Part shown: in pieces, positions 1,612 to 18,498 of the stretch
Layout: each line of letters starts with the position of its first letter
Position numbering within the stretch: the stretch's first letter is position 1
Origin: a virus
Taxonomy: Duplodnaviria > Heunggongvirae > Uroviricota > Caudoviricetes
IMG/VR virus record: IMGVR_UViG_2657245081_000006
DNA: 18,498 nt
Strand: one strand, 5' to 3'
Position numbers and translations under genes: made by a program
The notes under the pieces: generated by a model
Seen by the model: the letters and a program-made list of their open reading frames with translations, nothing else
Database searches by the model: none
What the model was told of the DNA's origin: nothing

Positions 1612-1619
1612 TTGATTTG

Positions 1620-1735: not shown

Positions 1736-2788
1736 TTATTTCCCCACCAGCTCGTTTATCTCTTTCACTGTCTGGTTAAACCGCTCTGACTCAAGCTCAA
1801 CACCTAAGGCCCGACGCCCCAGCGCCATTGCTGCTTTTATTGTGGAACCGGATCCCATAAAAAAATCAGCAACCAGATCACCAGGTCGACTACTGGCATT
1901 GATTATTTGCCTGAGCATATCCGCCGGTTTCTCACACGGATGTTTACCCGGGTAGAACTGAACGGGTTTATGCATCCAGACATCGGTATAAGGCACGGAG
2001 ACTGATACGGAGAAATAGCGCCGGAGAGATTTAAACTCATCCAGCAATTCAGAATATTTGCGATTCAGTGAATCATAAGATGCCACCAGCTGGTGGTGTG
2101 GTTGTTCCAGTTGTTGTTCCTGAAACTTCTCTGCCGCTATACGGGAAAACAGTGCCTGTAACTTCCGATAGTCAGCCTCATTCGGCAACTGCCACTGACT
2201 GGCACCAAACCAGTGGGAAACCATATTTTTCTTACCTGTGGCTTCGGCAATTTGTTTTGCCGTTATACCCAGTTCGGCACGAGCATCCCTGAAATACGAT
2301 ATCAGCGGTGCCATTATGTGCTGTTTGAGTTCCCTTTCTTTTGCCGCATAGCCGTCACTTTTGCCGCGATATGGCCCCTGGTAATGTTCAGCAAACAGAA
2401 CGCGCTCTGTGGCAGGAAAATATGCGCGCAGACTTTCTTTATTACACCCATTCCAACGTCCGGACGGCTTCGCCCAGATGATATGGTTAAGCACGTTGAA
2501 ACGTTCACGCATCATGATCTCAATATCAGATGCCAGGCGATGCCCACAGAACAGGTAAAGGCTTCCGGCAGGTTTTAACACCCGCCAGAACTGGGCCAGA
2601 CAGTGGTCCAGCCACTTAAGGTAATCTTCGTCCCCTTTCCACTGATTGTCCCAGCCGTTGGGTTTCACCTTGAAGTACGGCGGATCGGTAACAATCAGGT
2701 CAATGGAATCATCAGGCAGGGACTGAATAAAATGCAGGCAATCAGCGTTGATTAAATCAGCACTGTTTATTTTTACAGTATTTTTCAT
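1736..2788 (-). CDS. DNA methyltransferase, N6/N4 family (beta-class, DPPY motif IV near N-terminus, FxGxG motif I near C-terminus), 350 aa
   Basis: Translation contains IDLIVTDPPYF and DFFMGSGST; typical orphan phage-type adenine/cytosine-N MTase architecture. No clear SD before the ATG. Confidence 0.8.
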   Translation of the reverse strand: MKNTVKINSADLINADCLHFIQSLPDDSIDLIVTDPPYFKVKPNGWDNQWKGDEDYLKWLDHCLAQFWRVLKPAGSLYLFCGHRLASDIEIMMRERFNVLNHIIWAKPSGRWNGCNKESLRAYFPATERVLFAEHYQGPYRGKSDGYAAKERELKQHIMAPLISYFRDARAELGITAKQIAEATGKKNMVSHWFGASQWQLPNEADYRKLQALFSRIAAEKFQEQQLEQPHHQLVASYDSLNRKYSELLDEFKSLRRYFSVSVSVPYTDVWMHKPVQFYPGKHPCEKPADMLRQIINASSRPGDLVADFFMGSGSTIKAAMALGRRALGVELESERFNQTVKEINELVGK

Positions 2789-2938
2789 GGATCAGTAAGC
2801 GTAACTCTGGTAGGCTCACTCTGCTTTTGCGCTAAAGCAGTGGGCCGTGGTTCGCTTGTGACCAGTAAGCATGAGCGAATGGCTGGCAGGTGCTACCAAC
2901 ACCCACCAGCCGCCCATTTTCACAGCAGGAAACCGCCA

Positions 2939-3166
2939 TTACTGGCAGCGTCTGAATTTATTCCCGTACCCGCCGTTATCCTTCGCCAGACCCGCCAGAA
3001 CTAACTGAGTCAGTATTAACTGGCACCGGGCTTCGCTTACTCCGGTAGTTCTCGTCATCATGCGTGGCGTTACCCACTTGTCAGCAGGTAAGAAATGAAG
3101 GACTGCGGCGGCGGTTTCTGTCATATCTTGCTGTTTTAGCATGTCTTTTTCCCTTCTGGTTAACAT
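2939..3166 (-). CDS. small winged-helix-like protein (PapI/FaeA-like by eye), 75 aa; better SD before internal Met at 3142 (67 aa)
   Basis: Motif VLHFLPADKWVTPRMMTRTTGVSEARCQLILTQLVLAGLA looks like a winged helix-turn-helix; AAGGGA precedes the ATG at 3142. Family assignment is by eye only. Confidence 0.5.
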   Translation of the reverse strand: MLTRREKDMLKQQDMTETAAAVLHFLPADKWVTPRMMTRTTGVSEARCQLILTQLVLAGLAKDNGGYGNKFRRCQ

Positions 3167-3263
3167 GACATACCAATAACTCTTGTCTAAAAATCCAGCA
3201 AGATAAAAAGTCAGTATTCACGACCACCAGCGTGTTTACTGTACTGCACCAAGTTTACAGGTA

Positions 3264-3290
3264 CAAAAAACCCGCTCAGTGGCGGGTTTA
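3264..3290. terminator. bidirectional intrinsic terminator
   Basis: aaaaaacccgc-tcagtg-gcgggttt: 5-6 bp GC stem flanked by an A-run on one side and a T-run on the other; the minus-strand reading gives gcgggtttttt. Confidence 0.6.
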
Positions 3291-3418
3291 AGTTGTGTGG
3301 CGAAGTAACCACTCTTAACACACTAATAGCATTTTTGTTATAACACAAGTAGCTCATTCAGTATTTTTAGAATCTTGACTTTCTTAAGCACGGCGAACTC
3401 TGAATACCAAACATAAAA

Positions 3419-4036
3419 TCAATTATCTTCCAGGCCGGATGCTATCAACGAAAGCCTCTCAAAAAACGCTGTAGCAGCCTTGTCCAAAGTTGAATAAGTA
3501 CTGTATTCTCCGTGTTCGGGACCAACCACTACCCATGGTCGTCTTTTTGGGATTCGGGACTTCTCAGAAATCACTGTTCCAGATATACCAATATCAATTG
3601 TTACACCTGTTATTATTTTCTCTTCATCTCTTTCCCTGAACTCAATTGCCATAAATGCCGTTTTTTTTCGTTTCCCGTTTTTAAAAAAATCAAATAAAGC
3701 AAAGCGATGCTCATTAAAATCAACACCCCATCGTCCTTCAGGATAAAGGGCATGAAAGTTGTCATTTACGCTCTGCATCGTCTCATAAGCTTTAACTTCT
3801 AAATCTCCATAGTGCATAGATACCGCGCAGGAGTCACTGGGTAACTGTATTTTCCCAAGATTGAAAACCTTTACTGCTCCAGAACTATGGCATCTTGCCC
3901 GCAATTTATCCCCATTTATACTAATCGGAGAAATATTCCTTAATGTTCCGGGCTGGCTCCCTCCTAAGTAAACGACTGTTAAAGATTGCTTATTTTCAAT
4001 TGCATCAACTAATACATGCTCTACATTTTTATCCAT
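3419..4036 (-). CDS. hypothetical protein, 205 aa, AT-rich cargo gene immediately downstream of Q (no family recognised)
   Basis: ORF 3419..4063; start moved to ATG at 4034-4036 because GGGAGG lies 5 nt upstream (MDKNVEHV...). Sampled lines are about 37 percent GC against about 60 percent in neighbouring prophage genes. Confidence 0.7.
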   Translation of the reverse strand: MDKNVEHVLVDAIENKQSLTVVYLGGSQPGTLRNISPISINGDKLRARCHSSGAVKVFNLGKIQLPSDSCAVSMHYGDLEVKAYETMQSVNDNFHALYPEGRWGVDFNEHRFALFDFFKNGKRKKTAFMAIEFRERDEEKIITGVTIDIGISGTVISEKSRIPKRRPWVVVGPEHGEYSTYSTLDKAATAFFERLSLIASGLEDN

Positions 4037-4037
4037 A

Positions 4038-4074
4038 ATAACCTCCCGATGAACAGGTATCATCAGGAGGTTAT
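4038..4074 (-). promoter_or_regulatory. 15-bp stem / 7-nt loop hairpin sequestering the Shine-Dalgarno of the 205-aa gene
   Basis: Plus strand ataacctcccgatga-acaggta-tcatcaggaggttat. In the minus-sense mRNA the arms pair over 15 bp with one G-U; the SD GGGAGG lies in the 3' arm and the stem ends 1 nt before the AUG. Confidence 0.55.
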
Positions 4075-4111
4075 AATAAAATATGATTATTTACTTTGAT
4101 TGAATTTATTA

Positions 4112-4483
4112 CTATATGTAACAATCAATTTCTAAAGATACCCCCAACATTGCCAGACAACCGTCAATAAACCCTTCAGCTTTCTGCAGTCTGATAACAA
4201 CCTGATTAAGTGATATCCCCAGTTTTACCCCCAACGCCCGTAATGTAACCCCATACACATAATACATTTCCAGTAATTCGTATTGATACGGTTCCTTTTT
4301 CTTAAGAACTGTCATTGCAGAGCTAATGATCAGGCCATCGTCATCGCTACATTGCGGGCGGGATTTTACTTTCGAAGGAATTAATCCCTTAAAACCTGCA
4401 GCAACAGATGACCATTCCACATCCTCGTGATTATTTGCCACCCATGCCCCCCAACGTTCAAGAACCATTTGAATATCACGCAT
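4112..4483 (-). CDS. late-gene antiterminator Q, QuuD/phage-82 type (Phage_antitermQ family), 123 aa
   Basis: MRDIQMVLERWGAWVANNHEDVEWSSVAAGFKGLI... closely matches my recollection of DLP12 QuuD (YbcQ). Start chosen at ATG 4481-4483 with GGAGA 6 nt upstream. Confidence 0.8.
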   Translation of the reverse strand: MRDIQMVLERWGAWVANNHEDVEWSSVAAGFKGLIPSKVKSRPQCSDDDGLIISSAMTVLKKKEPYQYELLEMYYVYGVTLRALGVKLGISLNQVVIRLQKAEGFIDGCLAMLGVSLEIDCYI

Positions 4484-4500
4484 CAACTTTCTCCACAAAA

Positions 4501-5496
4501 TCAGGCCAGCACGCCTATTGCCAGCGCACGATCGATAAAACGAAATATCAGCTCCAGCTGGGAGCCATACTTCTCTTCAAATGCCACGGTATCCGCATGC
4601 AGCTCGTCGTGATGCTTTCTGCACAAAGGCAACACAAAGAGGTCATGCGCTTTTGTACCCATTCCACCCTGACCGTGGCCTATCAGGTGGTGGGGATCAT
4701 CAGCAGGCTTTCCACAACATGCACACGGCTGTGTCTTAACCCAGCGCGTGTACTTTTCATTAACCCAGCGGCGGCGTTTTGGGCGTAACATAAAAGACTC
4801 CGGCGACTCCGGATCCACTTTCAGCGCCAGCACCTTTTTCGCTTTATCCTGGATGATGCTGGTGGCAGGAACCGAAGGCACAAGGTCACTCTCCCGGGTG
4901 ACAGACGGCACAACAGGTTTCGGTAATCTCAGCGCCTTACGGGCTGCGCTTTCAGGTAAGGCATCCGCCAGGTCATTACGAATCAGCCACCAGCACAGTT
5001 CCGGCATTGTCACGGCATGGTTATCATCAAAACCGAGATCCCGACGGACTACAGACAACACCCAGCGGGCACAGTTATCCGTTGCCATTGATTCCAGCCG
5101 TTCCGTGAACTGATCGCGCAGCTGGTTATCGCAGTGCCAGCACAGACGGATTGCGCCCGGAGCGTGTCGCATTGTGGTCATGTTCTCGCTGTGCCAGTCG
5201 GAATGAGGCCACTGGCAGCCTTTTTCACGAAGTAACCAGCTTTCAAGACATTCCACGCCACCAGCACGACGGATCACTGCCTCATTGCGGAACACGGCCC
5301 GAACGGCAGGATCATCCGCCAGCGGTTGTGATACCGCCGGAACGGCACCACTGGCGAAAGATGAATAACGTTCCGGCTCAGGCTCCAGCAGGACACGCCC
5401 CTGCATAAACAGGGGCATCAGCTCTGAACCTGGCCTGAACAATACGATCCCCATACGCGGGGCAATTTCAGGGGTCAGTAGTGCTCTCACGGTCAC
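4501..5496 (-). CDS. DUF968-family phage protein (YdfU-like) with C-terminal Cys/His-rich HNH-like motif, 331 aa
   Basis: C-terminal CACCGKPADDPHHLIGHGQGG...LCRKHHDELH; position directly upstream of Q as in Qin/DLP12-type prophages. Annotated start is GTG at 5494-5496, 1 nt after the KilA-N stop. Confidence 0.7.
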   Translation of the reverse strand: MTVRALLTPEIAPRMGIVLFRPGSELMPLFMQGRVLLEPEPERYSSFASGAVPAVSQPLADDPAVRAVFRNEAVIRRAGGVECLESWLLREKGCQWPHSDWHSENMTTMRHAPGAIRLCWHCDNQLRDQFTERLESMATDNCARWVLSVVRRDLGFDDNHAVTMPELCWWLIRNDLADALPESAARKALRLPKPVVPSVTRESDLVPSVPATSIIQDKAKKVLALKVDPESPESFMLRPKRRRWVNEKYTRWVKTQPCACCGKPADDPHHLIGHGQGGMGTKAHDLFVLPLCRKHHDELHADTVAFEEKYGSQLELIFRFIDRALAIGVLA

Positions 5497-5497
5497 C

Positions 5498-6307
5498 TCA
5501 ATGAACGGTATCGAGCAGCTTTAACAGCTCAGGGAATCGGGATTCGAAGAAATGCGGCTGCGTCTCACGCGGATTTGCGGGACTGGTGATGTTCTTGCCG
5601 AACATGCAGCCTTTCGCCGTCAGCGACCAGAATTTTTTGATGTTGTTAATCCCGGTACGGCTGTATCGTTCGCGCTGCTCGACGATCCCCAGCTTCACCA
5701 TCTGGTGATATGCCTGATTAGCCGTCAGGCGGATACCATACTGCTTCAGCAGTGCACTCAGCGACAGCGTCGGGCGGCTTGAGCCATCAGGCGCGTCAGC
5801 AGGTGCATCAATGGCATAGCGCGGTGCCAGATTCGGTAAGCCAACAGCCTCCTGGAGTTTCTGACAGGCACCAAGCACTGAAGAGTTAGACAGATTTAAC
5901 TCCCGGCGCATAAAGTCCAGCAGGATCACGCCAGCCTGCATCTTGTCAGCAGCCTGTCCGGATAACTTTTCCGGCGCGCTGGTTACCATATCGAAAGTAC
6001 GGATCACCTTCAGATGGAATGACGGGCTGATCCACATTGCATAGGCATACACCAGTTCCTTACAGACATACGTTCCCCGTTCATTTCCCCCATGAATCAC
6101 ACTCACCGGGTCAACACCCAAATTCTGGGTGTTGGTTAATTCATGAACAAGCTCAACAGTTTGTTGGCTGGAAAGAAACTTTCCTGGCTCCTTGGTTCTG
6201 GCATTTGCACCAGATGCTACTGCTGCGCGATGCAGATCGTTCAGGCTGTAACGCCCATAAGCATCACGACGAACTTCAATACCATCAATGACCATCAGAT
6301 TATTCAT
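5498..6307 (-). CDS. KilA-N domain protein / putative antirepressor, 269 aa
   Basis: N-terminal ...YSLNDLHRAA...KPGKFL...GTYVCKELVYAYAMWISPSFHLKVIRTFD is the KilA-N signature; AGGAGA 6 nt upstream of the ATG at 6307. Confidence 0.8.
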   Translation of the reverse strand: MNNLMVIDGIEVRRDAYGRYSLNDLHRAAVASGANARTKEPGKFLSSQQTVELVHELTNTQNLGVDPVSVIHGGNERGTYVCKELVYAYAMWISPSFHLKVIRTFDMVTSAPEKLSGQAADKMQAGVILLDFMRRELNLSNSSVLGACQKLQEAVGLPNLAPRYAIDAPADAPDGSSRPTLSLSALLKQYGIRLTANQAYHQMVKLGIVEQRERYSRTGINNIKKFWSLTAKGCMFGKNITSPANPRETQPHFFESRFPELLKLLDTVH

Positions 6308-6326
6308 ACTTCGTTTCTCCTCTTAA

Positions 6327-6716
6327 TCAGGCAGCTGCACCCGCCGTTTTCTCGTACTTACTGATAGTGATCTCGACCTTCCCTTCCGGGATAACCGGTC
6401 CCCACTCCACCAGCATTCTTTTCACCTGACTGTCGTCTTCCCACACCCCCGCGTGGGTCAGGGCGTCAAACAGCGCCTTGTTATAGTTGTCCAGATCGCG
6501 GATCCTGTTATCCGGAGGAAACAACACGATCTCCACTGAAGCAGGTGCCGACGTTGGTTTCGGCAGACGACGTAACTGCTCAACTATTGCTGCACACGCC
6601 GCGCTCTGGAATTTGCGCCCCGCCGCGCTTATCAGGCTCTTACCTGCAAACGCCACTTTGTTGGGGTGTCGCCAGTACGTGTTCACGCTGGGCGGAAAAG
6701 GCAGTATTAGCTTCAT
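6327..6716 (-). CDS. rusA: Holliday-junction resolvase RusA, 129 aa
   Basis: MKLILPFPPSVNTYWRH...RDLDNYNKALFDALTHAGVWEDDSQV matches the RusA pattern (PxxPxxNxYxR, DLDN, D-D); ATGA overlap with the upstream gene. Confidence 0.85.
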   Translation of the reverse strand: MKLILPFPPSVNTYWRHPNKVAFAGKSLISAAGRKFQSAACAAIVEQLRRLPKPTSAPASVEIVLFPPDNRIRDLDNYNKALFDALTHAGVWEDDSQVKRMLVEWGPVIPEGKVEITISKYEKTAGAAA

Positions 6717-7039
6717 ACTTTCAGGCCCCTCTCATGTAACCAGTGGGCTGCACGCAACCTGGCGTTCTCCTCACCGGCAAGCAGTGCGCGGATGATACCG
6801 ACCGCCTCGCTGTCGTCGTCCTTCACCGCGGTATGAAGCGTGATGCCCCGGGCCACGCCACGCTTTATCGTGATGACGCCTTTTTTCTCCAGTGCGCGAA
6901 GATGCTCCACCGCTGCATTCACTGAACGGTATCCCAGCATGGTTGCCACCTCCTGATTGGTTGGCGGGAAGCCACGTTCTTTCTGATAAGAAATCAGCAT
7001 ATCCAGCACCTGCTGCTGGCATTGAGTTAACGTCGTCAT
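6713..7039 (-). CDS. LexA N-terminal DNA-binding-domain-like protein (no peptidase domain), 108 aa
   Basis: LTQCQQQVLDMLISYQKERGFPPTNQEVATMLGYRSVNAAVEHLRALEKKGVI resembles the LexA winged-helix DBD; ATGA overlaps at both ends. Confidence 0.6.
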   Translation of the reverse strand: MTTLTQCQQQVLDMLISYQKERGFPPTNQEVATMLGYRSVNAAVEHLRALEKKGVITIKRGVARGITLHTAVKDDDSEAVGIIRALLAGEENARLRAAHWLHERGLKV

Positions 7040-7689
7040 GCCGCCATCTCCCTGACCAGTTTTTCTGCCTGCTGGCGAACCTGCGCCAGAAAGGCCTCAC
7101 CACATGCCTCAAGTTCATCGCGCCCGATGTAGCTGATTGCCGGTCCCTTCCAGGTCTTGTCGAAAACAGCAATAGCACCAGCGAAGAAAGCGCCTGTCGG
7201 CACCTGCTTCTCATCCTTCGGGATAAACCAGGCAGGCAGTTCAAAACCAATACGCCCGCGAATAAAAGCAATATGATCTGCATCTTCCGGCCACCACACT
7301 TCGCTGGTGGCAGCTTTGATCAGGAAAACATAGCGCCCGCCTTTATCACGCATGGCACTGGCATGCTTCATGATGTAACGCATGCCGGTGATGTATTGCC
7401 CCTCATGCTGACTGGCGCGGCTGTATGGGGGATTACCAAAGGCAGCACCTTTAAGCTCCGCAAGGCGTTCTGACCAGTCATGCGCCAGCGCGTTGTCTTC
7501 CGCCGTGTAATACGCAGCACATTTGGCGTTATCACCGTCAGTGAACAGATCCAGAACAAACGGGCCAAACAGGGTGTTAATTCCCCAGAAAATGTTGTCC
7601 GGCGTGCGCCACTGATCGCCCACTTCCTTCAGTTCATGGGCTGGTTTGTTCCGCAGTTCCGCCAGCGCCTGGCAATATTTATTACTCAT
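7036..7689 (-). CDS. phage N6-adenine DNA methyltransferase (Dam family, NPPY), 217 aa
   Basis: DQWRTPDNIF...LDLFTDGDNAKC...AFGNPPYSR; start taken at ATG 7687-7689 overlapping the upstream stop (TAATG). Track ORF 7036..7722 has 11 extra N-terminal codons. Confidence 0.85.
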   Translation of the reverse strand: MSNKYCQALAELRNKPAHELKEVGDQWRTPDNIFWGINTLFGPFVLDLFTDGDNAKCAAYYTAEDNALAHDWSERLAELKGAAFGNPPYSRASQHEGQYITGMRYIMKHASAMRDKGGRYVFLIKAATSEVWWPEDADHIAFIRGRIGFELPAWFIPKDEKQVPTGAFFAGAIAVFDKTWKGPAISYIGRDELEACGEAFLAQVRQQAEKLVREMAA

Positions 7690-8183
7690 TAAGCCCCCAC
7701 GTAATTCCCTGAGAGATACCACTCTTCACCTGATGCAGCCCGCTTACTGCTTTTCCGTAAACACCGTTCACGACGCGCCAGAAAATTGTTTCGTTCTGGC
7801 TGGGAGTGGCTTTCACGGAATGCCGCCATCCACACCGTTGCAGCACGACGGTATAAGCCCCTCGACTCCAGTTCTTCAGCCTGGCGGGTCAGGCACAAAA
7901 TCACCCGGGGGTCGTTAGTGCCGACATAGAACTTGCGCACAGGTCTGGTTTCACGAACTGGTTGTGGTTCCGGCTCCTGCGCTCTCTCAGTCAGGCGCGA
8001 GAAATGTCTGCGTGTATCTCCTTCACAACGGTGAGCCACACGCCCACTCTGACGTAACTTGCTTGCTGACTGCAGAACGCGCTGCCGTGAGTAACCTGCA
8101 AAAGCATCCGCAATGTCTCCGGAAGTACAGCCCGGATGGGCTTCAATGAATTTCTGAACTTCATTCAAAATACTCATGCTCAC
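7689..8183 (-). CDS. PerC-like transcriptional regulator (N-terminal wHTH-like region plus LYRRAATVWMAAF motif), about 162-164 aa
   Basis: C-terminal ...ESRGLYRRAATVWMAAF resembles the PerC family. First codon is GTG at 8181-8183 (overlapping the O-like stop); alternative ATG at 8177. Confidence 0.55.
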   Translation of the reverse strand: MSMSILNEVQKFIEAHPGCTSGDIADAFAGYSRQRVLQSASKLRQSGRVAHRCEGDTRRHFSRLTERAQEPEPQPVRETRPVRKFYVGTNDPRVILCLTRQAEELESRGLYRRAATVWMAAFRESHSQPERNNFLARRERCLRKSSKRAASGEEWYLSGNYVGA

Positions 8184-9172
8184 CCCCTGAATCCTGCCGG
8201 GATCTGGCTGTAGTCCACGTTGTCGTAACTGGATTTGAAATATGGGTCTTCGCGTTTTTCTGTGTATGTGCTGACGGACGGCGATAAGCGCAGGGAAAGC
8301 TCATCCCATTTTTCCCGCAGCTTCGACGGGCTGAGCACGTTACGGCACCAGAACGGATCGCGGCTGACGCGGCTGTACATCTCGCAGATTTGTTTGTGAG
8401 TACGACCATCCTGCACACACATCAGGCGAATTTCGTTTGCCCAGGCTGTCCAGTTCGGTTCTTTGGGACGAACCACCTCGCCGTCACATTCGGCGGCCTG
8501 CTCGTACAGGGCGATGATTTTTTTCCAGAGCCACTGTGCGCAGGTCAAATCATCCTGCGTTCCCCACTGGCGCTTTTTAGGGCTGAATACAACCGCATCA
8601 GGATGGCGAGTTAAAAACTCCTGTTCAGCCGTTTGCGTGTCCGGTTGCGAAGCGTCCGGACGAGAAGAGGTTTTATTCTCTGTAGTAATCTCTGTTGTAT
8701 TCTCTGTAAGATCATTGGGCCATTTTGACCCGATGACAGCGTGTCGTTTTGAACCAATGGATCGTGTCATTTTGCGCCCATCCATCAGGTCACTTTGACC
8801 CGATGGAGAAGTGCATTTTGACCTGATGGATTCGTTCACTTTGACCTCTTCTAAAAGCTCACTTTCATAGTTGATCGTGTAGAAGTTGGTCATGTCACGC
8901 TTCGATTTATTGAGTTGCTCGCGACGCAAAACCCCAAGTGATTTCAGGCTTGCAAATGTGCGTTTCAGAGTGGACTCTGACCAGAACGGAAACTGCTCCA
9001 GCCACTGTTCTGTCGTGTTATAAACCCAGCGAATTCCGCCATGCTCAGTGCCTGAATTCGTTTCATTCAGCCAGTAATGAAGCTGCTGCAACACAATTGC
9101 CTCATTCAGACCAATACGGCATGCAAGATCACGATTTATCACAATGGGCTGGGATGTCATTAACAGGCTCAT
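8180..9172 (-). CDS. replication initiator / replisome organizer (lambda O-like; ori iterons inside the gene), 330 aa
   Basis: N-terminal HTH-like region, repetitive S/T-rich linker encoded by the iterons, C-terminal W/C-rich helical domain; position after cII; ATGA overlaps on both sides. Confidence 0.75.
   Translation of the reverse strand: MSLLMTSQPIVINRDLACRIGLNEAIVLQQLHYWLNETNSGTEHGGIRWVYNTTEQWLEQFPFWSESTLKRTFASLKSLGVLRREQLNKSKRDMTNFYTINYESELLEEVKVNESIRSKCTSPSGQSDLMDGRKMTRSIGSKRHAVIGSKWPNDLTENTTEITTENKTSSRPDASQPDTQTAEQEFLTRHPDAVVFSPKKRQWGTQDDLTCAQWLWKKIIALYEQAAECDGEVVRPKEPNWTAWANEIRLMCVQDGRTHKQICEMYSRVSRDPFWCRNVLSPSKLREKWDELSLRLSPSVSTYTEKREDPYFKSSYDNVDYSQIPAGFRG
8721..8851. repeat. replication-origin iterons: about 6 copies of a CAYTTTGACCYGATGG-like unit at 23-24 bp spacing
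   Basis: Copies begin at 8721 (cattttgacccgatga), 8745 (degenerate), 8768 (degenerate), 8791 (cactttgacccgatgga), 8814 (cattttgacctgatgga), 8837 (cactttgacctc). Confidence 0.75.
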
Positions 9173-11098: not shown

Positions 11099-11129
11099 CG
11101 TTCTGTGGTTAAAAATTGAAGGTGTTCTG

Positions 11130-11330
11130 TTAATCTTTCGGATAGATATCCGGTCTTAAGTCAGATTTCGTAATTGCACCTGACGTGCATTGCTCAAGTT
11201 TTTTAGCCAGCACAAAACTGGCTTTTTTATAACCATTGAAAACCAGCCGTAAGTAGCCTGGTGTTGAGCCAACTTTTCCGGCCAACTCGCCCTGCTGTTC
11301 TTTGGTTAAAGAGTCCCAATACGCTTTCAT
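11130..11330 (-). CDS. cro: Cro-like repressor (YdaS-type HTH), 66 aa
   Basis: MKAYWDSLTKEQQGELAGKVGSTPGYLRLVFNGYKKASFVLAKKLEQCTSGAITKSDLRPDIYPKD; GGAGG 10 nt upstream of the ATG at 11328-11330; divergent from cI. The 167-aa track ORF is an unsupported upstream extension. Confidence 0.75.
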   Translation of the reverse strand: MKAYWDSLTKEQQGELAGKVGSTPGYLRLVFNGYKKASFVLAKKLEQCTSGAITKSDLRPDIYPKD

Positions 11331-11420
11331 ACAATATGTACCTCCGATATACATATTACATGATTGAGATGAACCTTCAAGATACTTGTACCCTATCGGT
11401 ACAAAGGTTTTAATTTCGTT
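11331..11420. promoter_or_regulatory. OR region: divergent PR (toward cro) and PRM (toward cI) with palindromic operator candidates
   Basis: Palindromes ATGTA-N9-TACAT (11336-11354) and TTGTACC-N5-GGTACAA (11386-11404). PR on minus: -35 TTGAAG (11375-11380), 16-nt spacer, -10 TAATAT (11353-11358). PRM on plus: -35 TTGTAC (11386-11391), 17 nt, -10 TTTAAT (11409-11414), giving a near-leaderless cI mRNA. Confidence 0.55.
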
Positions 11421-12095
11421 ATGAAAACAGTCCATGACATCCGGCGGTCTAACGCCAGAAAACTGAGAGATGGTGTTGGCGGGAATTCTTCCTTTGCCAC
11501 CATGATTGATCGCGAGCCAACCCAGACCAGCAGGTTTATGGGAGATGGTGCTACTAAAAATATCGGTGACAGCATGGCACGGCACATCGAAAAATGTTTC
11601 GACCTGCCTGTCGGATGGCTTGATCAAGAACACCAGACAACAAACATCACAAAAAAACCTGATGTTTCAATTACTAACAAACAAATAACGTTAGTCCCTG
11701 TCATATCATGGGTACAGGCCGGAGCATGGAAAGAAGTTGGCTATTCTGAGGTTGATTTGAGCACAGCAGAAACTTATCCCTGCCCTGTACCCTGTGGCGA
11801 AATGACTTATATCTTGCGGGTGATTGGTGATTCAATGATTGATGAGTACCGCCCGGGAGACATGATTTTTGTTGATCCTGAAGTCCCTGCCTGCCACGGT
11901 GACGACGTTATTGCATTGATGCACGATACAGGCGAAACCACCTTCAAGCGGTTGATAGAAGATGGAACACAGCGTTACCTCAAAGCATTAAACCCAAACT
12001 GGCCTGAACCTTACATTAAGATCAACGGTAATTGCTCTATAATTGGTACAGTGATTTTCTCAGGAAAACCAAGAAGATACAAAATAAAGGCCTAA
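11421..12095 (+). CDS. cI: CI-like prophage repressor, HTH plus S24 (LexA-like) autopeptidase domain, 224 aa
   Basis: C-terminal VPVISWVQAGAW...RVIGDSM...PGDMIFVD...GDDVIALMHDTGETTFKRL is the S24 peptidase signature; N-terminal HTH; no SD, consistent with a leaderless PRM transcript. Confidence 0.9.
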   Translation: MKTVHDIRRSNARKLRDGVGGNSSFATMIDREPTQTSRFMGDGATKNIGDSMARHIEKCFDLPVGWLDQEHQTTNITKKPDVSITNKQITLVPVISWVQAGAWKEVGYSEVDLSTAETYPCPVPCGEMTYILRVIGDSMIDEYRPGDMIFVDPEVPACHGDDVIALMHDTGETTFKRLIEDGTQRYLKALNPNWPEPYIKINGNCSIIGTVIFSGKPRRYKIKA

Positions 12096-12106
12096 TCAAT
12101 ATTTAT

Positions 12107-12130
12107 AACCTGCTTCGGCAGGTTTTTTTA
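12107..12130 (+). terminator. intrinsic terminator downstream of cI
   Basis: aacctgc-ttcg-gcaggtt followed by ttttttt. Confidence 0.65.
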
Positions 12131-12133
12131 TAC

Positions 12134-12166
12134 TTGACAATGTACCCTTGAGATACATAATGTATC
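12134..12166 (+). promoter_or_regulatory. PL-like promoter with overlapping operator (OL)
   Basis: -35 TTGACA (12134-12139), 16-17 nt spacer, -10 CATAAT/ATAATG (12156-12162); operator ATGTA-N9-TACAT at 12140-12158 and a perfect 15-bp palindrome GATACATAATGTATC at 12152-12166. Confidence 0.6.
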
Positions 12167-12598
12167 TAAAAGAAACATAACACAGGCAAGATTAAACTAA
12201 ATTTGGTTGTAACACGGCGTATGGCACATGCGTCGTTAGCGGTCTGGGGACGTTAAAGGGGACAATCCACTCCTTGCTCGAGCAAACAAACCAGGTAGCC
12301 GGAATGTGCAAGTCAATGATGATGCTGATAAGACGCCTAACCAGCGTGGCGATTCGGTTTGACGCCTGGGAAGAGACCAGGGTGCAACGATGAGGGCATT
12401 TATGGAACCGCGACAAAGTGTGGTGCCGTAACTGGCTAAGTGCTCTCAGCGTTGTGGTGAATGCGCAGGCTGATGCGCGAAAGACATTGCAGCTATTGCG
12501 GAAAAGAGCTGTTCGGCGGGGCAATTAAACGCCCGTGAGAGTCTGAAATAACCGCAAGCCGGAGATCAGCACCGGTCACCACAACAGCCACTGCTTTG

Positions 12599-12646
12599 GC
12601 GGTACCAGTTTGTACACTTGCTTCCGGCTGGTACCGCTCTTTTTAC
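12599..12646 (+). terminator. terminator-like hairpin in the PL leader (10-bp stem gcggtaccag/ctggtaccgc, 19-nt loop, then TCTTTTT)
   Basis: Perfect 10-bp inverted repeat at 12599-12608 / 12628-12637 followed by a T-run at 12640-12644; the loop is long for a canonical terminator. Confidence 0.45.
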
Positions 12647-12733
12647 AAAACAGAGAAGAGCATCACCGGACGACGGGCTCATAACCCAATCCATCCGGGC
12701 GGCTGCCACCGCAGGTGTTCTTCTCTGTTTTGT
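12645..12733 (+). repeat. 15-bp perfect inverted repeat (acaaaacagagaaga / tcttctctgttttgt) enclosing 59 nt
   Basis: 12645-12659 is the exact reverse complement of 12719-12733; it lies in the untranslated leader just upstream of the first early-left gene. Confidence 0.7.
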
Positions 12734-12778
12734 GGAGAAACTAACCGACCTTGCAGGGTCGATATGATGAGGAGCAGC

Positions 12779-13144
12779 AAAATGGCTAGCGAACGCAGTA
12801 CTGATGTGCAGGCATTTATCGGGGAGCTGGACGGCGGCGTATTTGAAACCAAAATCGGCGCAGTTCTCAGTGAAGTCGCTTCCGGTGTGATGAACACGAA
12901 AACCAAAGGTAAGGTCTCGCTCAACCTGGAAATCGAACCATTTGATGAGAACCGTGTGAAAATCAAACACAAACTCTCATATGTTCGCCCGACTAACCGC
13001 GGGAAAATTTCCGAAGAAGACACCACCGAAACACCGATGTATGTCAATCGCGGTGGTCGCCTGACTATTCTGCAGGAAGACCAGGGACAATTACTGACTC
13101 TTGCCGGTGAACCTGACGGAAAACTACGCGCAGCAGGTCATTAA
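12779..13144 (+). CDS. YfdP-like prophage protein, 121 aa
   Basis: AGGAG 7 nt upstream of the ATG at 12779; followed by YfdQ- and YfdR-like genes as in the CPS-53 (KpLE1) yfdPQRST cluster. The 182-aa track ORF is an upstream extension through the structured leader. Confidence 0.65.
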   Translation, partial: KMASERSTDVQAFIGELDGGVFETKIGAVLSEVASGVMNTKTKGKVSLNLEIEPFDENRVKIKHKLSYVRPTNRGKISEEDTTETPMYVNRGGRLTILQEDQGQLLTLAGEPDGKLRAAGH

Positions 13145-13209
13145 TATCGTTCTTAATTAACTGATTATTTATCTCATCACTGAATATCTTTATATAGTGA
13201 GGACTGATT

Positions 13210-14034
13210 ATGTCTCATAACTTAGACGCAACCGCAATTAATCAAATCCATGCCCTTATTTCTGCTCAGGGTGTTAATGAAATCATCAGTAAGATTGGTG
13301 CCGATGCTGTGGCATTGCCTGAGAATTTCCGCATTCATGATCTGGAAAAATTTAATTTAAATCGTTTCCGTTTCCGTGGTGCGCTTTCCACTGCCAGCAT
13401 CGATGACTTTACCCGTTATTCTAAAGATCTTGCAGATGAAGGCACCCGCTGCTTTATCGATGCCGATAATATGCGTGCCGTCAGTGTGCTTAACCTGGGT
13501 ACTATTGATGAGCCAGGTCACGCAGATAACACTGCCACTCTCAAACTGAAAAAGACAGCACCGTTCTCTGCTCTGTTGTCTGTTAATGGCGAGCGTAACT
13601 CCCAGAAGTCACTGGCAGAATGGATTGAAGACTGGGCCGACTACCTTGTGGGCTTTGATGCTAATGGTGACACCATTCAGGCAACCAAAGCGGCTGCGGC
13701 GATCCGTAAAATCACAATTGAAGCGAACCAGACCGCTGATTTTGAAGATAATGACTTCAGCGGCAAACGCTCCCTGATGGAGTCTGTCGAAGCGAAGACC
13801 AAAGACATTATGCCAGTGGCATTTGAATTTAAATGCGTTCCGTTTGAAGGCCTGAAAGAACGTCCATTTAAATTACGCCTCAGCATTATCACTGGCGATC
13901 GTCCTGTACTGGTTCTGCGCATTATTCAGCTGGAAGCGGTGCAGGAAGAAATGGCTAACGAATTTCGTGATCTGCTTGTTGAGAAATTCAAAGACAGCAA
14001 AGTAGAAACCTTTATTGGTACTTTCACCGCCTGA
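13210..14034 (+). CDS. DUF2303-family protein (YfdQ-like), 274 aa
   Basis: Length identical to K-12 YfdQ and same gene neighbourhood; GAGGA SD upstream. Confidence 0.75.
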
Positions 14035-14161
14035 TTTCATTACTGCAAATGCCCCTGCGGGGGCATTTATGGAAACGTAATTAACTCAATAATCACCGAA
14101 TGGTGAGGGCTTCCTTTTACCAGAATTCAGCGCGGTGCAGTGCATATACGTGGAGAACAAA

Positions 14162-14698
14162 ATGTCATTTATTAAAACTTTTTCCGGGAAGCATTTTTAT
14201 TATGACAAGATAAATAAAGACGACATCGTTATTAACGATATCGCGGTTTCCCTTTCAAATATCTGTCGCTTTGCAGGACATCTTTCACACTTCTACAGCG
14301 TCGCCCAACATGCGGTGCTTTGCAGCCAGCTGGTACCGCAGGAATTTGCTTTTGAAGCGTTAATGCATGATGCAACAGAAGCATATTGTCAGGACATCCC
14401 CGCACCACTGAAACGCCTTCTTCCTGACTATAAACGGATGGAAGAAAAAATAGACGCCGTAATCCGTGAGAAATACGGGTTACCTCCTGTTATGAGCACG
14501 CCAGTGAAATATGCCGATCTCATTATGCTGGCAACCGAACGCCGCGATCTCGGGCTTGATGATGGTTCTTTCTGGCCTGTACTGGAAGGTATCCCGGCGA
14601 CAGAGATGTTCAAAGTTATTCCACTGTCACCAGGCCATGCCTACGGGATGTTTATGGAACGTTTTAACGAGTTATCGGGGTTACGCAAATGCGCATGA
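14162..14698 (+). CDS. HD-domain phosphohydrolase (YfdR-like 5'-deoxynucleotidase), 178 aa
   Basis: HD motif region ...FAGHLSHFYSVAQHAVL...LMHDATEAYCQDIP...; start at ATG 14162 with GGAGA SD gives 178 aa, the size of K-12 YfdR. Confidence 0.8.
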   Translation: MSFIKTFSGKHFYYDKINKDDIVINDIAVSLSNICRFAGHLSHFYSVAQHAVLCSQLVPQEFAFEALMHDATEAYCQDIPAPLKRLLPDYKRMEEKIDAVIREKYGLPPVMSTPVKYADLIMLATERRDLGLDDGSFWPVLEGIPATEMFKVIPLSPGHAYGMFMERFNELSGLRKCA

Positions 14699-15276
14699 AT
14701 GTTTTCGAAATGGAAGGGTTTCTTCGCGGGAAATGTGTACCGCGAGATCTGAAAGTGAACGAAACAAACGCTGAGTACCTGGTGCGTAAATTTGCTGAAG
14801 CTGAGGCCAAGTGCGCGGCGCTGGCTGAACGTATCGAAGAGTTACAGACAAAACCTACGCCAGATTCGTTTGGCATCATCGGTGAAAACATTCGAACACA
14901 GGATAATCGAATAACGTCAGACCCTATGTTTTGTGTGTATCAAAAGCGCGAAATTGTTGTTGATGCTGATTATGACTATGACCGGATTGTCTGGGTTGAT
15001 GAAGATAGCAATGAAGCCAATAAACTCCAAAGTCGTCGTCTCGAACTACTTCATGAAAACTTTCGGGAACCACCAGAAAAATGGCGGCGCGTTGCTGTGA
15101 AAGATATTGATGAATTCGTTACCTGCTGTTTCACCGAACAGGGTTGTAAAGACTACCTGGCAGCCAATGGTCACAATCTTCGCTTGCCATTTATATATGT
15201 AAAAAGCGGTTTCAGGAACGCTGAATATATCGGCATAAGAAACTGGCTTGCTGGCATTCGCATCAAAGGAGAGTGA
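14689..15276 (+). CDS. hypothetical early-left protein with N-terminal coiled-coil-like segment (Ead/Ea22-like by eye), about 193-195 aa
   Basis: Starts at ATG 14689 or 14695 (ATGA overlap with the HD-gene stop); AEAEAKCAALAERIEELQ looks like a coiled coil. Family call is weak. Confidence 0.55.
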   Translation: MRMNVFEMEGFLRGKCVPRDLKVNETNAEYLVRKFAEAEAKCAALAERIEELQTKPTPDSFGIIGENIRTQDNRITSDPMFCVYQKREIVVDADYDYDRIVWVDEDSNEANKLQSRRLELLHENFREPPEKWRRVAVKDIDEFVTCCFTEQGCKDYLAANGHNLRLPFIYVKSGFRNAEYIGIRNWLAGIRIKGE

Positions 15277-15277
15277 G

Positions 15278-15469
15278 ATGATCGGACAAATATCAATTGT
15301 TCGACCGGGAGCATGTGACGATCGCGAGATACGAATGATTATTCGTCTGGCAATAGGGAAAACAATAACTGCTCTCATTACTCCTGAAAATCTCGCATTA
15401 GCGTTAACAGGAAAGTCAGACCTGCCAGTAGAGCTAAAGCTGCGAAATATTGAGATTAAAGTGAAATAG
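15278..15469 (+). CDS. hypothetical small protein, 63 aa
   Basis: AGGAG 8 nt upstream of ATG 15278; tightly packed between flanking genes (1-2 nt gaps). Confidence 0.55.
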   Translation: MIGQISIVRPGACDDREIRMIIRLAIGKTITALITPENLALALTGKSDLPVELKLRNIEIKVK

Positions 15470-15471
15470 TT

Positions 15472-16359
15472 ATGAATACTCTTACCAAAGAATGGTTACA
15501 GAACACGATTACCGGAATTGAGTCGATAATAGACGATAAATCGTTTGTATGTAGTGAAATAGCATTCGAAATAGGTGTGGTTAACAACATACTTACCGCA
15601 TTTAAAATTGCACTGGCATCGCTGGAAGCAGATCCAGTTGCTTATATTTTCAAACATCCGGCCGGGAAATTATTCTGGGCTTTAACTGATGAAAGCAATA
15701 AAGAGCAAGCTGACGTTATTCCTGTTTATGCTGCCGCGCCTGCGTCGGTTGTGCCGGATAATGCATCAGAGCCTCTTGCTTATGCTTACAAAGAGCTTAC
15801 GCCTGAGATTATGCGCAACCATTTAGCTGTATTCGAGCGATATGGAATAGCCCCAAACGATAGCTCTACCACAATTCAGGCACTGCGAATCGCGCTGGAT
15901 GGCATAGAGCGGAGCGGCGCCATGCTTCATGGTGCCGAACCTGTAAGCCAAACTTACAAGTTGCCTCCCCTGTCATCCAACGAAGTAAACGACGCGGCAT
16001 GGAAATTACGCAACATGCTTACTGAACACGGTCCTCTTAATGGGCGTCAGTTCAACAATCTGAAAGGTTGCTTCTATGAGGCATTAAAGGTCGCAATGCG
16101 CAACTATCCGGTAACTCCGGATAGTTGGATAAGCTGTAGTGATCGAATGCCAGAAATGGGAGAGCGACAATGCTATGCGTTAGCGGCTGACTTTAAAAAC
16201 AACTACCCGCCACACATCCCCAACACTCAGGTCGGCGTATATGGCGACTGGTTTAATGATGGCGATCCCACTTGGGTTGACGGTGATGGCGAAGACCTGT
16301 ATCTCAAAGAGGTAACCCACTGGATTCCGCTACCAGAACCGCCGCAGGAGGTGAAGTGA
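15472..16359 (+). CDS. DUF551-like phage protein, 295 aa
   Basis: C-terminal WISCSDRMPEMGERQCYA...THWIPLPEPP resembles the DUF551 motif common in lambdoid early-left regions. Confidence 0.65.
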   Translation: MNTLTKEWLQNTITGIESIIDDKSFVCSEIAFEIGVVNNILTAFKIALASLEADPVAYIFKHPAGKLFWALTDESNKEQADVIPVYAAAPASVVPDNASEPLAYAYKELTPEIMRNHLAVFERYGIAPNDSSTTIQALRIALDGIERSGAMLHGAEPVSQTYKLPPLSSNEVNDAAWKLRNMLTEHGPLNGRQFNNLKGCFYEALKVAMRNYPVTPDSWISCSDRMPEMGERQCYALAADFKNNYPPHIPNTQVGVYGDWFNDGDPTWVDGDGEDLYLKEVTHWIPLPEPPQEVK

Positions 16360-16931
16360 TGAACAACTTAATGATCGACCTTGAGACGATGGGGAAAAAT
16401 AAGGATGCACCGATCGTTTCCATTGGCGCGGTGTTCTTCACTCCAGAAACCGGAGACATCGGACAAGAATTCTATACGGTTGTTAGCCTGGAAAGTGCTA
16501 TGGGGCAAGGAGCTACACCTGACGGCGATACCATCCTGTGGTGGTTGAAACAAAGCCCTGAAGCACGAGCTGCAATCTGTATTGATGATACTTTGTCGAT
16601 CAGCGATGCTCTCTCAGAACTAAATCATTTCATTAACCGGCACGCAGACAATACGAAATATTTAAAAGTCTGGGGTAACGGAGCCACCTTCGACAACGTA
16701 ATTTTACGTGGAGCTTATGAGCGAGCAGGACAAATCTGTCCGTGGGCATACTGGAATGACCACGATGTACGCACGATCGTTACGCTTGGGCGTTCCATCG
16801 GATTCGACCCCAAAATGGACATGCCTTTCGATGGCGAACGGCACAACGCCATGGCTGATGCCCGTCATCAGGCAAAATATGTTTCCGCTATCTGGCAGAA
16901 ATTAATTCCTGCCACCAGCACAGAATTATGA
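16359..16931 (+). CDS. DEDDh 3'-5' exonuclease (RNase T/DnaQ-like phage exonuclease), 190 aa
   Basis: MIDLETMGK...APIVSIGAV (Exo I), WGNGATFDNVIL (Exo II), HNAMADARHQA (Exo III with His); AGGAGG SD; TGATG overlap with the upstream stop. Confidence 0.8.
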   Translation: MNNLMIDLETMGKNKDAPIVSIGAVFFTPETGDIGQEFYTVVSLESAMGQGATPDGDTILWWLKQSPEARAAICIDDTLSISDALSELNHFINRHADNTKYLKVWGNGATFDNVILRGAYERAGQICPWAYWNDHDVRTIVTLGRSIGFDPKMDMPFDGERHNAMADARHQAKYVSAIWQKLIPATSTEL

Positions 16932-16967
16932 TTTTCCCGGGTGCAGCCGGTTTTGATGGAGAAAATT

Positions 16968-17249
16968 ATGAACACCTTGTTTTTACTGATGGCTGAATTC
17001 AATACCCCTAACATTGAACTCTCAGCAGTTAGCCAAAAGTACTTTGGCATGAGTCCAGCCACGGCAGAAGCAAAAGCAAACGCTTGTAAGTTGCCCGTTC
17101 CAACATATCGCATCGGCACATCACAAAAAGCAAAACGTTGCATCAATATTCAGGATCTTGCGGAATACATAGACAAAAGACGAGAAGAAGGACGTATCGA
17201 GTGGGAACAGGTCAGAACAAGCAAACAGAAGGGCAAAGAACATCACTAA
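16968..17249 (+). CDS. PrtN-family protein (pyocin-activator-like; excisionase-type regulator in prophages), 93 aa
   Basis: MNTLFLLMAEF...KLPVPTYRIGTSQKAKRCINIQDLAEYIDKRREEG matches the PrtN-type pattern; GGAG 7 nt upstream of the ATG at 16968. Confidence 0.6.
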   Translation: MNTLFLLMAEFNTPNIELSAVSQKYFGMSPATAEAKANACKLPVPTYRIGTSQKAKRCINIQDLAEYIDKRREEGRIEWEQVRTSKQKGKEHH

Positions 17250-17251
17250 AT

Positions 17252-17279
17252 AAAAAACCCGCCTAAAGGCGGGTTTTCA
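17252..17279. terminator. bidirectional intrinsic terminator between the convergent early-left operon and the right-end cargo operon
   Basis: aaaaaacccgcc-taaa-ggcgggtttt; the minus-strand reading has the longer T-run. Confidence 0.65.
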
Positions 17280-17296
17280 AAAAGCACCAGCTATGA

Positions 17297-17470
17297 TCAT
17301 GCTGCTTTGCGACGACGAAGCTTACCCTGCTGCTCTTTACCAGAGACAGTAGCGTGAGTGAACGCATTAGGAGCAGCCTTCATCAGAACTTCAACAGCAG
17401 CACCCATACCTGCGAATGCTTTCATTGTGTCGAACTTAACCTGTGGCTTGGTTGCTTTTTGATCTTCCAT
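17297..17470 (-). CDS. hypothetical small protein, 57 aa (below the 60-aa cutoff of the ORF track)
   Basis: ATG at 17468-17470 preceded by AGGAG at 7-nt spacing; translation MEDQKATKPQVKFDTMKAFAGMGAAVEVLMKAAPNAFTHATVSGKEQQGKLRRRKAA; TGA stop; terminator follows. Confidence 0.5.
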   Translation of the reverse strand: MEDQKATKPQVKFDTMKAFAGMGAAVEVLMKAAPNAFTHATVSGKEQQGKLRRRKAA

Positions 17471-17509
17471 AGAAAACTCCTGAAGTTATACCGAAACAAT
17501 TCCTGTTGT

Positions 17510-17929
17510 TTACTCATCATCAATAGATGATACGCAATATTTATTTTTAAATTTAAGGTTCTTTGGCGTAACTTCATCAGAGATATCAAAACCGTCCAGA
17601 ATTCTATTGAATGTAGCTTCTGGCATATCATCATGAACAGAAATCTCACCCGATCGCTGCTTTCTAACCATGTTATCCACTCGCCAAATTATAGCTTCAG
17701 CGTAAACAACATAACTTGGATGCTTGATAAAGCGATGATCACCAGAATTCAAGACGCAAGACGGATCGTGGGGGACACCATCCTTGATACTAGAAATATT
17801 AACAACTAAAACACAATAACAATCGTTAACGGGGTAATAAACAGGATCATTACAAATCACATGAAGATGATTGCATGGCCCAGTTGGGGCAAGCACAGTT
17901 CCTTTCCTGTATGGCTGATAATCCGTCAT
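17510..17929 (-). CDS. hypothetical protein, candidate toxin partner of the Panacea-domain gene, 139 aa
   Basis: ATGA start/stop overlap with the upstream Panacea gene (17926-17929); AT-rich; CYCVLVVNISSIK and WRVDNMVRK segments loosely resemble MazF/PemK-like strands by eye only. Confidence 0.55.
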   Translation of the reverse strand: MTDYQPYRKGTVLAPTGPCNHLHVICNDPVYYPVNDCYCVLVVNISSIKDGVPHDPSCVLNSGDHRFIKHPSYVVYAEAIIWRVDNMVRKQRSGEISVHDDMPEATFNRILDGFDISDEVTPKNLKFKNKYCVSSIDDE

Positions 17930-18498
17930 GATAATTGCAAAGAAAATTCCTTAAGTTTCTGAGATTCTTCCATTTTGCCAATTATGCGATTAGCCTCATC
18001 CTCGCTTTTACCCTCACTGATCAGCATTTCTTTCAGGTCTATAGGCTTACGAGAATTGCCAGGATCGTGCCACTCTGGACAAACGCTTTCTAGATGCGTC
18101 ATATTTGCGAGATCAAATCGGTTCATATGCCCATACCGAGAATAGATTTCATCTAAAATCCGGATATCTGCACGACTCAATTCATCAAAGACCTCGTCTG
18201 CATCCATTTCCCTCGGATCTGAACGCAACGATACATTATGCCCGTTCGTCTCTATCAAGTTGTACCAGTAGTCACCAATGCCTTCAGCCTTACCGCGAAT
18301 CAAGTTCAGCGTATTCGACATGACTGGTCCAAATTTCATAGAGTAAAGGCTATCTTCGCCGATCATCCTGCCATGCTTCAAAATCGACTGGCGGTTAGAC
18401 AGATAGAGCAACTTCATCAATTTCAGATATGCCATGCGCCCACCTCGCTTAAGAAGTAGGTATGCAGCCATTTGAGCTACTTTTTCTTCGCAAAACAT
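17926..18498 (-). CDS. Panacea-domain (DUF4065, SocA/PanA-like) protein, 190 aa; start codon is the last 3 nt of the window
   Basis: N-terminal ...MAYLKLMKLLYLSNRQSI...SMKFGPVMSN matches the Panacea core (LKLxKLLY ... GPV); AT-rich. Confidence 0.7.
   Translation of the reverse strand: MFCEEKVAQMAAYLLLKRGGRMAYLKLMKLLYLSNRQSILKHGRMIGEDSLYSMKFGPVMSNTLNLIRGKAEGIGDYWYNLIETNGHNVSLRSDPREMDADEVFDELSRADIRILDEIYSRYGHMNRFDLANMTHLESVCPEWHDPGNSRKPIDLKEMLISEGKSEDEANRIIGKMEESQKLKEFSLQLS

Follow-up and report, generated by a model that had tools for sequence, protein, structure and literature searches.

We analysed an 18,498-nt stretch of viral DNA (IMG/VR virus record IMGVR_UViG_2657245081_000006; "the window" means this whole stretch), which is E. 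coli DNA, and found that its part from 1685 to 18498 is very probably the early half of an ordinary lambdoid prophage of the mEp460/cdtI/SfV type, inserted in the 5′ end of dusA and truncated by assembly. It had originally been predicted that the window holds either a defective or cryptic prophage that retains regulatory and cargo genes, or an artefact of fragmented assembly. The gene calls were checked with Pfam, PHROG and PADLOC profile scans, and the RNAs with Rfam. The observations on which the original prediction was built were borne out: Pfam and PHROG confirmed immunity and replication genes, the antiterminator Q, a cargo gene, a terminator and a DNA methyltransferase gene before a gap; scans of open reading frames (ORFs) and profiles confirmed that no lysis, morphogenesis, integrase or att element is visible in the window; and at the other end a Xis-like gene, of the PrtN type, is followed by a terminator (17253–17278) and cargo, with no int. 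Of the two readings offered, the assembly artefact was supported by a join made of ten Ns (N10) and by a repeat edge, while the defective or cryptic prophage gained no positive support. We hold with considerable confidence that the missing modules reflect an assembly break and a window cut on an already known type of prophage. The late genes are missing because the contig stops at an exact repeat and was concatenated with an N10 spacer, and att is missing because the window was trimmed to a gene boundary.

The window opens, at its first base, with the stop codon of kgtP and closes, at its final base, with the start codon of the last cargo gene; its right "end" is a window cut and not an end of sequence. 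The kgtP gene (alpha-ketoglutarate permease; 1–1299, minus strand; Pfam MFS/Sugar_tr) is chromosomal, belongs to an unrelated contig and lies outside the prophage, and the region from kgtP to rrf is 100% identical to many complete E. coli genomes. Only the 3′ 55 nt of the 5S rRNA gene beside kgtP are present (rrf; 1620–1674, minus strand; from sequence and RefSeq annotation), and the Rfam scan gave no 5S match for this 55-nt remnant. 5S rRNA, where the left contig ends, is a classic assembly break point, and window positions 1–1674 matched a median of 8 places per genome (the match was annotated 'rrf: 5S ribosomal RNA'). The sole run of Ns in the window, the N10 scaffold gap, lies at 1675–1684. 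Phage DNA (1685–18498) follows directly after it, starting with a spacer between the methyltransferase stop codon and the holin region (1685–1735, minus strand); in relatives the start codon of the holin gene lies 17 nt further on. A hairpin at 1717–1736, just past the methyltransferase stop, was not significant (z −0.7).

An exact-protein look-up with the methyltransferase identified sibling draft assemblies of one accession series (prefixes JRRS, JRSD, JRSG, JRSB, JRRN, JRRZ and JRRJ). One record, L023 (GCA_001413415.1, JRRM01000063.1), was 100% identical to window positions 1–12788, with the gap and kgtP included, and GCA_001413415.1 is the probable source assembly. The prophage stretch 1685–12788 (11.1 kb) was 100% identical in eight sibling draft assemblies, and past the N10 gap each sibling has a different locus (tktA/speA, kdsA/prfA, secE/nusG, nupC/mntH, aroE, csgG and others). 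It is therefore clear that these records are contigs strung together with N10 spacers and that adjacency across a gap is meaningless; the N10 gap of the window is an arbitrary join of two unrelated contigs. One could suppose that the junction is real, i.e. that a rearrangement set kgtP–rrf beside the prophage methyltransferase gene and deleted the late genes, as both sequences are adjacent in the deposited record. However, Ns lie between them, the left side ends in the middle of 5S rRNA and the right side at a repeat edge, and in the clonal siblings this point has seven further neighbours that exclude one another. Moreover, the kgtP–prophage join occurred in none of the 25 best complete-genome matches listed, all of which begin at query position 1685. 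A real junction was rejected on the N gap, the repeat edges and the differing neighbours in the siblings, and we give it practically no credence.

Six siblings reach beyond the contig end of the window, five of them by 58–66 nt and one (L021) by 1096 nt. The extensions of 58–66 nt read ATGAAATCCATGGATAAG..., which is the start of the holin gene, and the extension of 1096 nt covers the intact gene of a 71-aa holin, a lysozyme gene (165 aa) and Rz over at least 123 aa. The same 1096 nt matched at 100% the lysis cassette of a second lambdoid prophage in the probable source assembly (L058), in which the gene order is cI, cro, O, P, NinE, RusA, Q, a porin gene, holin, lysozyme and Rz; the cassette was also found in the second lambdoid prophage of eight other siblings. 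The identity of the repeat opens at the base matching window position 1684, one past the contig end at 1685. An exact repeat of 1096 nt is not bridgeable by short reads, which explains the contig break. The lysozyme variant is known from 17 contigs, and the 10 shown of these 17 are all from the sibling accession series. Of 5426 complete E. coli genomes, 5164 carry this type of lysis cassette; the median copy number was 2 and the highest 13. We also noticed that at least one additional lambdoid prophage is present in the probable source genome (L058, JRRM01000063.1 117313–137810; compare L062 and L061), also with Nu1, and that a third type of lysis cassette is present in one sibling.

When compared module by module, the phage part was 96–98% identical to mEp460, cdtI, SfV, PhiR40_1 and Stx2c phages, and it matched many prophages in complete E. 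coli genomes too. In mEp460 (NC_019716, 44.5 kb), Q is followed by two small ORFs, the methyltransferase, holin, lysozyme, Rz and the genome end, and terminase opens the record. In MARGA_3 and strain 219 the methyltransferase is followed by essD, rrrD, Rz, DUF1441, TerL and portal genes, with capsid and lambda-like tail genes also present in MARGA_3, and the same late order was observed in L015, L018, L069, L071, L073, L074 and L075–L084. In L082, the pair of Q and WYL-like cargo gene found in the window is combined with a full late region. The comparison with intact relatives proposed at the outset gave the same answer throughout: in about 18 of 18 uninterrupted relatives the methyltransferase gene runs on into holin, lysozyme, Rz, terminase, portal, capsid and tail genes, and a 67-aa ORF, the methyltransferase and holin are co-directional downstream of Q. 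The methyltransferase had been taken for a separate cassette, a view that does not hold, as the 67-aa ORF and the methyltransferase gene stand directly upstream of the holin gene in these relatives. Between attL and attR the MARGA_3 prophage is 44.56 kb long, i.e. the genome size of mEp460.

These matches also bear on the possibility of a phage satellite, or a non-phage island with regulatory genes only, that hijacks a helper phage. The window has Q, an antirepressor and cargo and no visible structural genes, as such an element might; Pfam and PHROG scans of the window ORFs revealed no holin, endolysin, terminase, capsid, tail or integrase. But its 16.8 kb of phage DNA are 96–99% identical by module to the early regions of mEp460, cdtI, SfV and Stx2c phages, and in those full-size phages the lysis and packaging genes directly follow the methyltransferase. 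A satellite or phage-inducible chromosomal island (PICI) is thus extremely improbable and was rejected on the full-size phage matches with late genes behind the methyltransferase.

We located the right end of the prophage by using the last cargo gene and the DUF551 gene as look-up queries. In the two siblings displayed, JRSD and JRRS, a 104-nt native dusA 5′ fragment lies 255–358 nt past the window end; JRSD is gap-free from the cargo genes to this fragment, JRRS likewise over that stretch, and there were 13 further similar places besides. Beyond the fragment we found yjbM, zur and yjbJ in both siblings, and additionally dinF and lexA in JRSD. Siblings whose prophage sequence is 100% identical to that of the window therefore carry an insertion in the 5′ end of dusA with the native fragment at the distal junction, and 19 of the 22 related right ends have the native fragment. 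In MARGA_3, the fragment and the 5′ end of the intact dusA gene at the opposite end of the prophage share 83% identity over 104–107 nt. Judged by sequence comparison, attR consists of the native dusA 5′ end, displaced by the insertion, and the 5′ end of the intact dusA in MARGA_3 is the phage-supplied substitute. Inside the window there is no att-like dusA fragment, and a tRNA scan for an att-type tRNA found none within the window.

In relatives, the integrase gene lies at the opposite end of the prophage, beside the restored dusA. In MARGA_3 a tyrosine integrase gene lies 88 bp from the intact dusA, in divergent orientation, and int is about 44 kb from the xis end in lysogens; the adjacency of dusA, int and DinI was observed in 20 of 20 further contigs looked up, in addition to MARGA_3. 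The order in mEp460 is tail fibres, DinI, int, the region of attP homology (24486–24592), a cargo slot, a 57-aa ORF and xis. With int, attP and xis in this order, integration at attP sends int and xis to opposite ends of the prophage, and a right end with xis, a terminator and cargo but without int is therefore the normal right end of an intact member. The architecture of dusA-associated integrases, with the integrase beside dusA and the displaced native 5′ end far off, has been published (PMC4482086). The original prediction held that lysis or structural genes and int/att immediately beyond the gap or the window end would refute it. Lysis genes, in a stretch that is an exact repeat shared with another prophage, and att, as the dusA fragment, were indeed found there in siblings; int was not found beyond the window end, since int never adjoins xis in the mEp460-type family.

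We also looked at the retained genes for signs of decay. All visible ORFs were full length compared with relatives, and most of them equal those of mEp460 where the module is common to both; no transposase or insertion sequence (IS) match and no frameshift was detected in the 16.8 kb of the phage part. The pseudogenes, IS insertions and truncated genes that mark a defective prophage were thus absent from the retained part. It seems unlikely that the element is a truly defective dusA prophage in which the morphogenesis genes, and perhaps int, were deleted while regulation, lysis and cargo were kept, possibly for host benefit, although the cargo genes described below (PanA, MazF-fold and WYL-like) are intact and no head, tail or int gene of the clone was recovered. 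Besides the lack of decay signs in the window, the contig stop at the exact-repeat boundary accounts fully for the break, the siblings run on into intact holin and lysozyme genes, and full late regions are present not only in the unbroken methyltransferase-bearing relatives but also in 19 of 20 int-bearing relatives. A natural deletion derivative in the same family does lend the defective prophage some plausibility. This contig, L048 (GCA_949281465.1, CASDMI010000063.1), carries dusA, int, DinI, an invertase, fibre remnants, HNH, lysis genes, the methyltransferase and Q; no terminase, head or tail genes were found in it, and it is a genuine deletion derivative of the mEp460-type family.

The existence of such true deletion derivatives is one of several points that weigh against an ordinary prophage truncated by assembly. 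Look-ups with TerL (P0229, the TerL of mEp460, and P0275) returned other strains only, and exact-protein look-ups with the int variants P0121 and P0135 likewise returned only other strains and no source clone or sibling. No terminase, capsid, tail or int–dusA junction contig was recovered from the source strain or its siblings, and we infer completeness beyond the 1.1-kb lysis repeat from the relatives. In addition, the lysis cassette being an exact repeat, L021 could follow the other repeat copy beyond its first ~60 nt.

With an early half of a lambdoid prophage truncated by assembly as the preferred reading, the modules of the phage part can be followed from the gap rightwards. The methyltransferase (1736–2788, minus strand) is of the N6/N4 DNA type (PF01555, E 2e-42; PADLOC MTase_II, E 2e-152). 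The conserved phage ORF of 67 aa (2939–3142, minus strand; PHROG 331) stands upstream of the methyltransferase in all relatives and is the first ORF past a strong intrinsic terminator on the minus strand (3265–3289; −13.7 kcal/mol, z −4.2, then a U run), which is located downstream of Q and a cargo gene. This terminator is presumably a tR′-like site, read through by Q-modified polymerase. The cargo gene encodes a 205-aa WYL-like protein (3419–4036, minus strand; PF13280, E 0.0096, below the Pfam cutoff; PHROG 8498, E 3e-126), of which the WYL-like match is weak and N-terminal; the gene also lies between Q and the methyltransferase in the full-length relatives L001, L004 and L082. We noticed that it is placed between Q and the tR′-like terminator, i.e. 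upstream of the terminator, and that GC content is low in Q (42%) and in the WYL-like gene (39.6%) compared with 48% for the phage part.

The Q antiterminator (4112–4483, minus strand; PF06530, E 5e-48) is preceded by a nin-like region (4501–8183, minus strand), which according to Pfam matches encodes, all on the minus strand, DUF968/HNH (4501–5490), KilA-N (5498–6307), RusA (6327–6716), a 108-aa protein consisting of a LexA DNA-binding domain only (6713–7039), a Dam-type methyltransferase (7036–7689) and PerC/YfdN (7689–8183). The gene lengths in this region are the same as in relatives and, for the modules that mEp460 has, the same as in mEp460. The 108-aa LexA-like protein is without the S24 peptidase part and is conserved in the mEp460-type family; it could bind SOS boxes without being cleavable. 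The window thus has two DNA methyltransferases, the N6/N4 type at 1736–2788 and the Dam type at 7036–7689, neither with an adjoining restriction enzyme. Next comes an O-like replication initiator (8180–9172, minus strand; PHROG 391, E 1e-101), so that the initiator and the nin-region genes, then Q, stand in lambdoid order.

Between the O-like gene and the gene of a Rha/Ash antirepressor there is a 74-aa ORF, also on the minus strand. The antirepressor ORF (9390–10538, minus strand; PF09669, PF10554) is 382 aa long as called, and the real protein may be shorter. Two minus-strand RNAs, a C4 antisense RNA (9990–10077; Rfam RF01695, 82.8 bits) and isrK (10102–10178; Rfam RF01394, 61.5 bits), are embedded in the 5′ third of this ORF, a position that suggests control of the antirepressor by antisense RNA in a manner similar to P1 immI. 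The immunity region is lambdoid, with cI (S24) and cro divergent and accompanied by CII: a CII-like gene (10535–11086, minus strand; PF06892), a Cro-like gene of 66 aa (11130–11330, minus strand; PF15943) and a cI-like S24 repressor gene (11421–12095, plus strand; PF00717). The translation of the repressor contains a QAG/AW cleavage-site-like motif, the GDSM serine and the FKRL lysine. The mechanical ORFs at 11130–11633 and 12596–13144 were over-called, as the siblings have the 66-aa Cro-like protein (11130–11330) and a YfdP of 120 aa (12782–13144) at these places.

The early-left operon (12782–16931, plus strand; from Pfam/PHROG matches and sibling gene calls) encodes YfdP, YfdQ/DUF2303, the YfdR HD phosphohydrolase, ORFs of 193 aa and 63 aa, DUF551 and a 3′–5′ exonuclease. 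It is followed by the putative excisionase (Xis) of the PrtN family (16968–17249, plus strand; PF11112, E 4e-23; PHROG 1300 'excisionase', E 8e-40), a gene that carries an excisionase annotation in mEp460, and by a bidirectional intrinsic terminator that separates xis from the convergent cargo (17253–17278; −16.2 and −17.3 kcal/mol, z about −4.9). The order of genes in the window and in mEp460 is alike, running from xis(PrtN) through exo, DUF551, YfdR, YfdQ, YfdP, cI, cro, cII, Rha, O, PerC, Dam, LexA DNA-binding domain, RusA, KilA-N, DUF968 and Q to the 67-aa ORF and the methyltransferase. In mEp460, a relative of cdtI, SfV and PhiR40_1 that matched 67% of the phage part at 97.4% identity, the methyltransferase is followed by holin, lysozyme, Rz and cos. 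The two differ in the immunity allele, in Q (a 250-aa PF03589-type protein in mEp460, a 123-aa PF06530 protein in the window), in the cargo after Q, in the att-proximal slot (a 177-aa gene in mEp460, a PanA/MazF-fold pair in the window) and in holin, which is of the lambda-S type in mEp460 and of the essD type in the type of prophage to which the window belongs.

Another related element is CPS-53 (KpLE1), a cryptic prophage of E. coli K-12, and yfd gene names also occur in the RefSeq annotation; homologues of yfdN, yfdP, yfdQ and yfdR are present in the window. CPS-53 is a truly decayed remnant at argW, whereas the element in the window is at dusA and is without visible decay. The dusA-associated integrase (DAI) elements of Farrugia et al. 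(2015, PMC4482086) resemble it in that they insert in the 5′ end of dusA, supply a substitute 5′ end, leave the native 5′ end at the far junction and have the integrase beside dusA, a position that is taken here from relatives, int of the window's strain not having been recovered. The DAI class was defined mainly from islands of Acinetobacter and Pseudomonas (PMC4482086), whereas the element in the window is a lambdoid phage.

The att-proximal cargo begins with a conserved phage ORF of 57 aa (17297–17470, minus strand; PHROG 2741), which is also present in mEp460 and strain 219. Then follow the gene of a 139-aa putative toxin (17510–17929, minus strand), with no Pfam match and a MazF/PemK-like fold in its predicted structure, and that of a Panacea-domain (PanA) putative antitoxin (17926–18498, minus strand; PF13274, E 2e-19, above the Pfam cutoff), the last gene before attR. 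The two genes overlap by 4 nt (17926–17929), and the Panacea (DUF4065) domain expected in PanAT systems was found as PF13274. The AlphaFold2 model of the 139-aa protein had a pLDDT of 92.6 (alignment of 53 sequences), and all 50 matches listed by Foldseek in the PDB were MazF, MazF-family toxins or mRNA interferases, with E values from 1e-3; against MazF-family structures, TM-scores were 0.54–0.66 by target and 0.46–0.54 by query, at 9–18% identity. The family of this protein is small, with 62 sequence clusters from Enterobacterales, Vibrio and Shewanella, and its invariant residues are H21, H23, C26, D55, C58 and H65. When the three cargo proteins were searched by sequence against the PDB, no significant match was obtained, and PADLOC found no defence-system match for the cargo, only the weak WYL match.

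PanAT systems are phage-borne, and mRNA-interferase-like partners have been described for PanA (Kurata et al., 2022, PMC8832971). The window has the same arrangement, a Panacea-domain gene immediately upstream of, and overlapping, a small-protein gene, and differs in that the 139-aa partner belongs to no Pfam family and is linked to MazF by predicted fold only. PanA and the 139-aa protein thus fit a putative PanA/PanT toxin–antitoxin pair, as far as the structural model goes. We also observed that the slot between xis and attR varies among similar dusA prophages (window 17297–18498; L037–L043, L004, L003 24740–25643). At least three sets of genes occur in it: proteins of 57 aa and 139 aa with a PanA of 190 aa; a protein of 182 aa with a PanA of 157 aa; and proteins of 57 aa and 177 aa. 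The slot thus looks like a hot spot for accessory genes close to att. It is conceivable, though rather doubtful, that this slot is a hot spot into which toxin–antitoxin or defence modules are swapped, here with an undescribed family of MazF-like toxins neutralised by PanA; if this were true, the PanA/toxin pair might serve to stabilise the prophage or to keep other phages out. Less likely than such a hot spot is a domesticated remnant kept for its cargo.

Modules, terminators, repeat boundary and gene order were observed, as was the dusA junction in the siblings, and the steps by which the prophage would work can be proposed from lambdoid biology and from the family. The cI protein, an S24 autopeptidase, would keep the prophage silent, and its SOS-triggered autocleavage would free transcription both ways, leftward from yfdP through exo to xis and rightward from cro, cII, rha and O through Q. 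Q would then let the polymerase pass the terminator at 3265–3289 into the 67-aa ORF and the genes for methyltransferase, holin, lysozyme, Rz, terminase, head and tail. For excision, Int made from its own promoter beside dusA and Xis of the leftward operon would recombine attL with attR.

This type of prophage is already known, and no new biology comes from the finding itself; the uncharacterised cargo pair of PanA and a MazF-fold protein is only a mildly interesting by-product. The finding is above all a caution. Drafts concatenated with N10 make intact prophages look truncated, and the joins create false neighbours, here kgtP and 5S rRNA beside a phage methyltransferase. In lambdoid phages that integrate at dusA, moreover, an end with xis but no int is not to be scored as decay, because int and xis flank attP on opposite sides.

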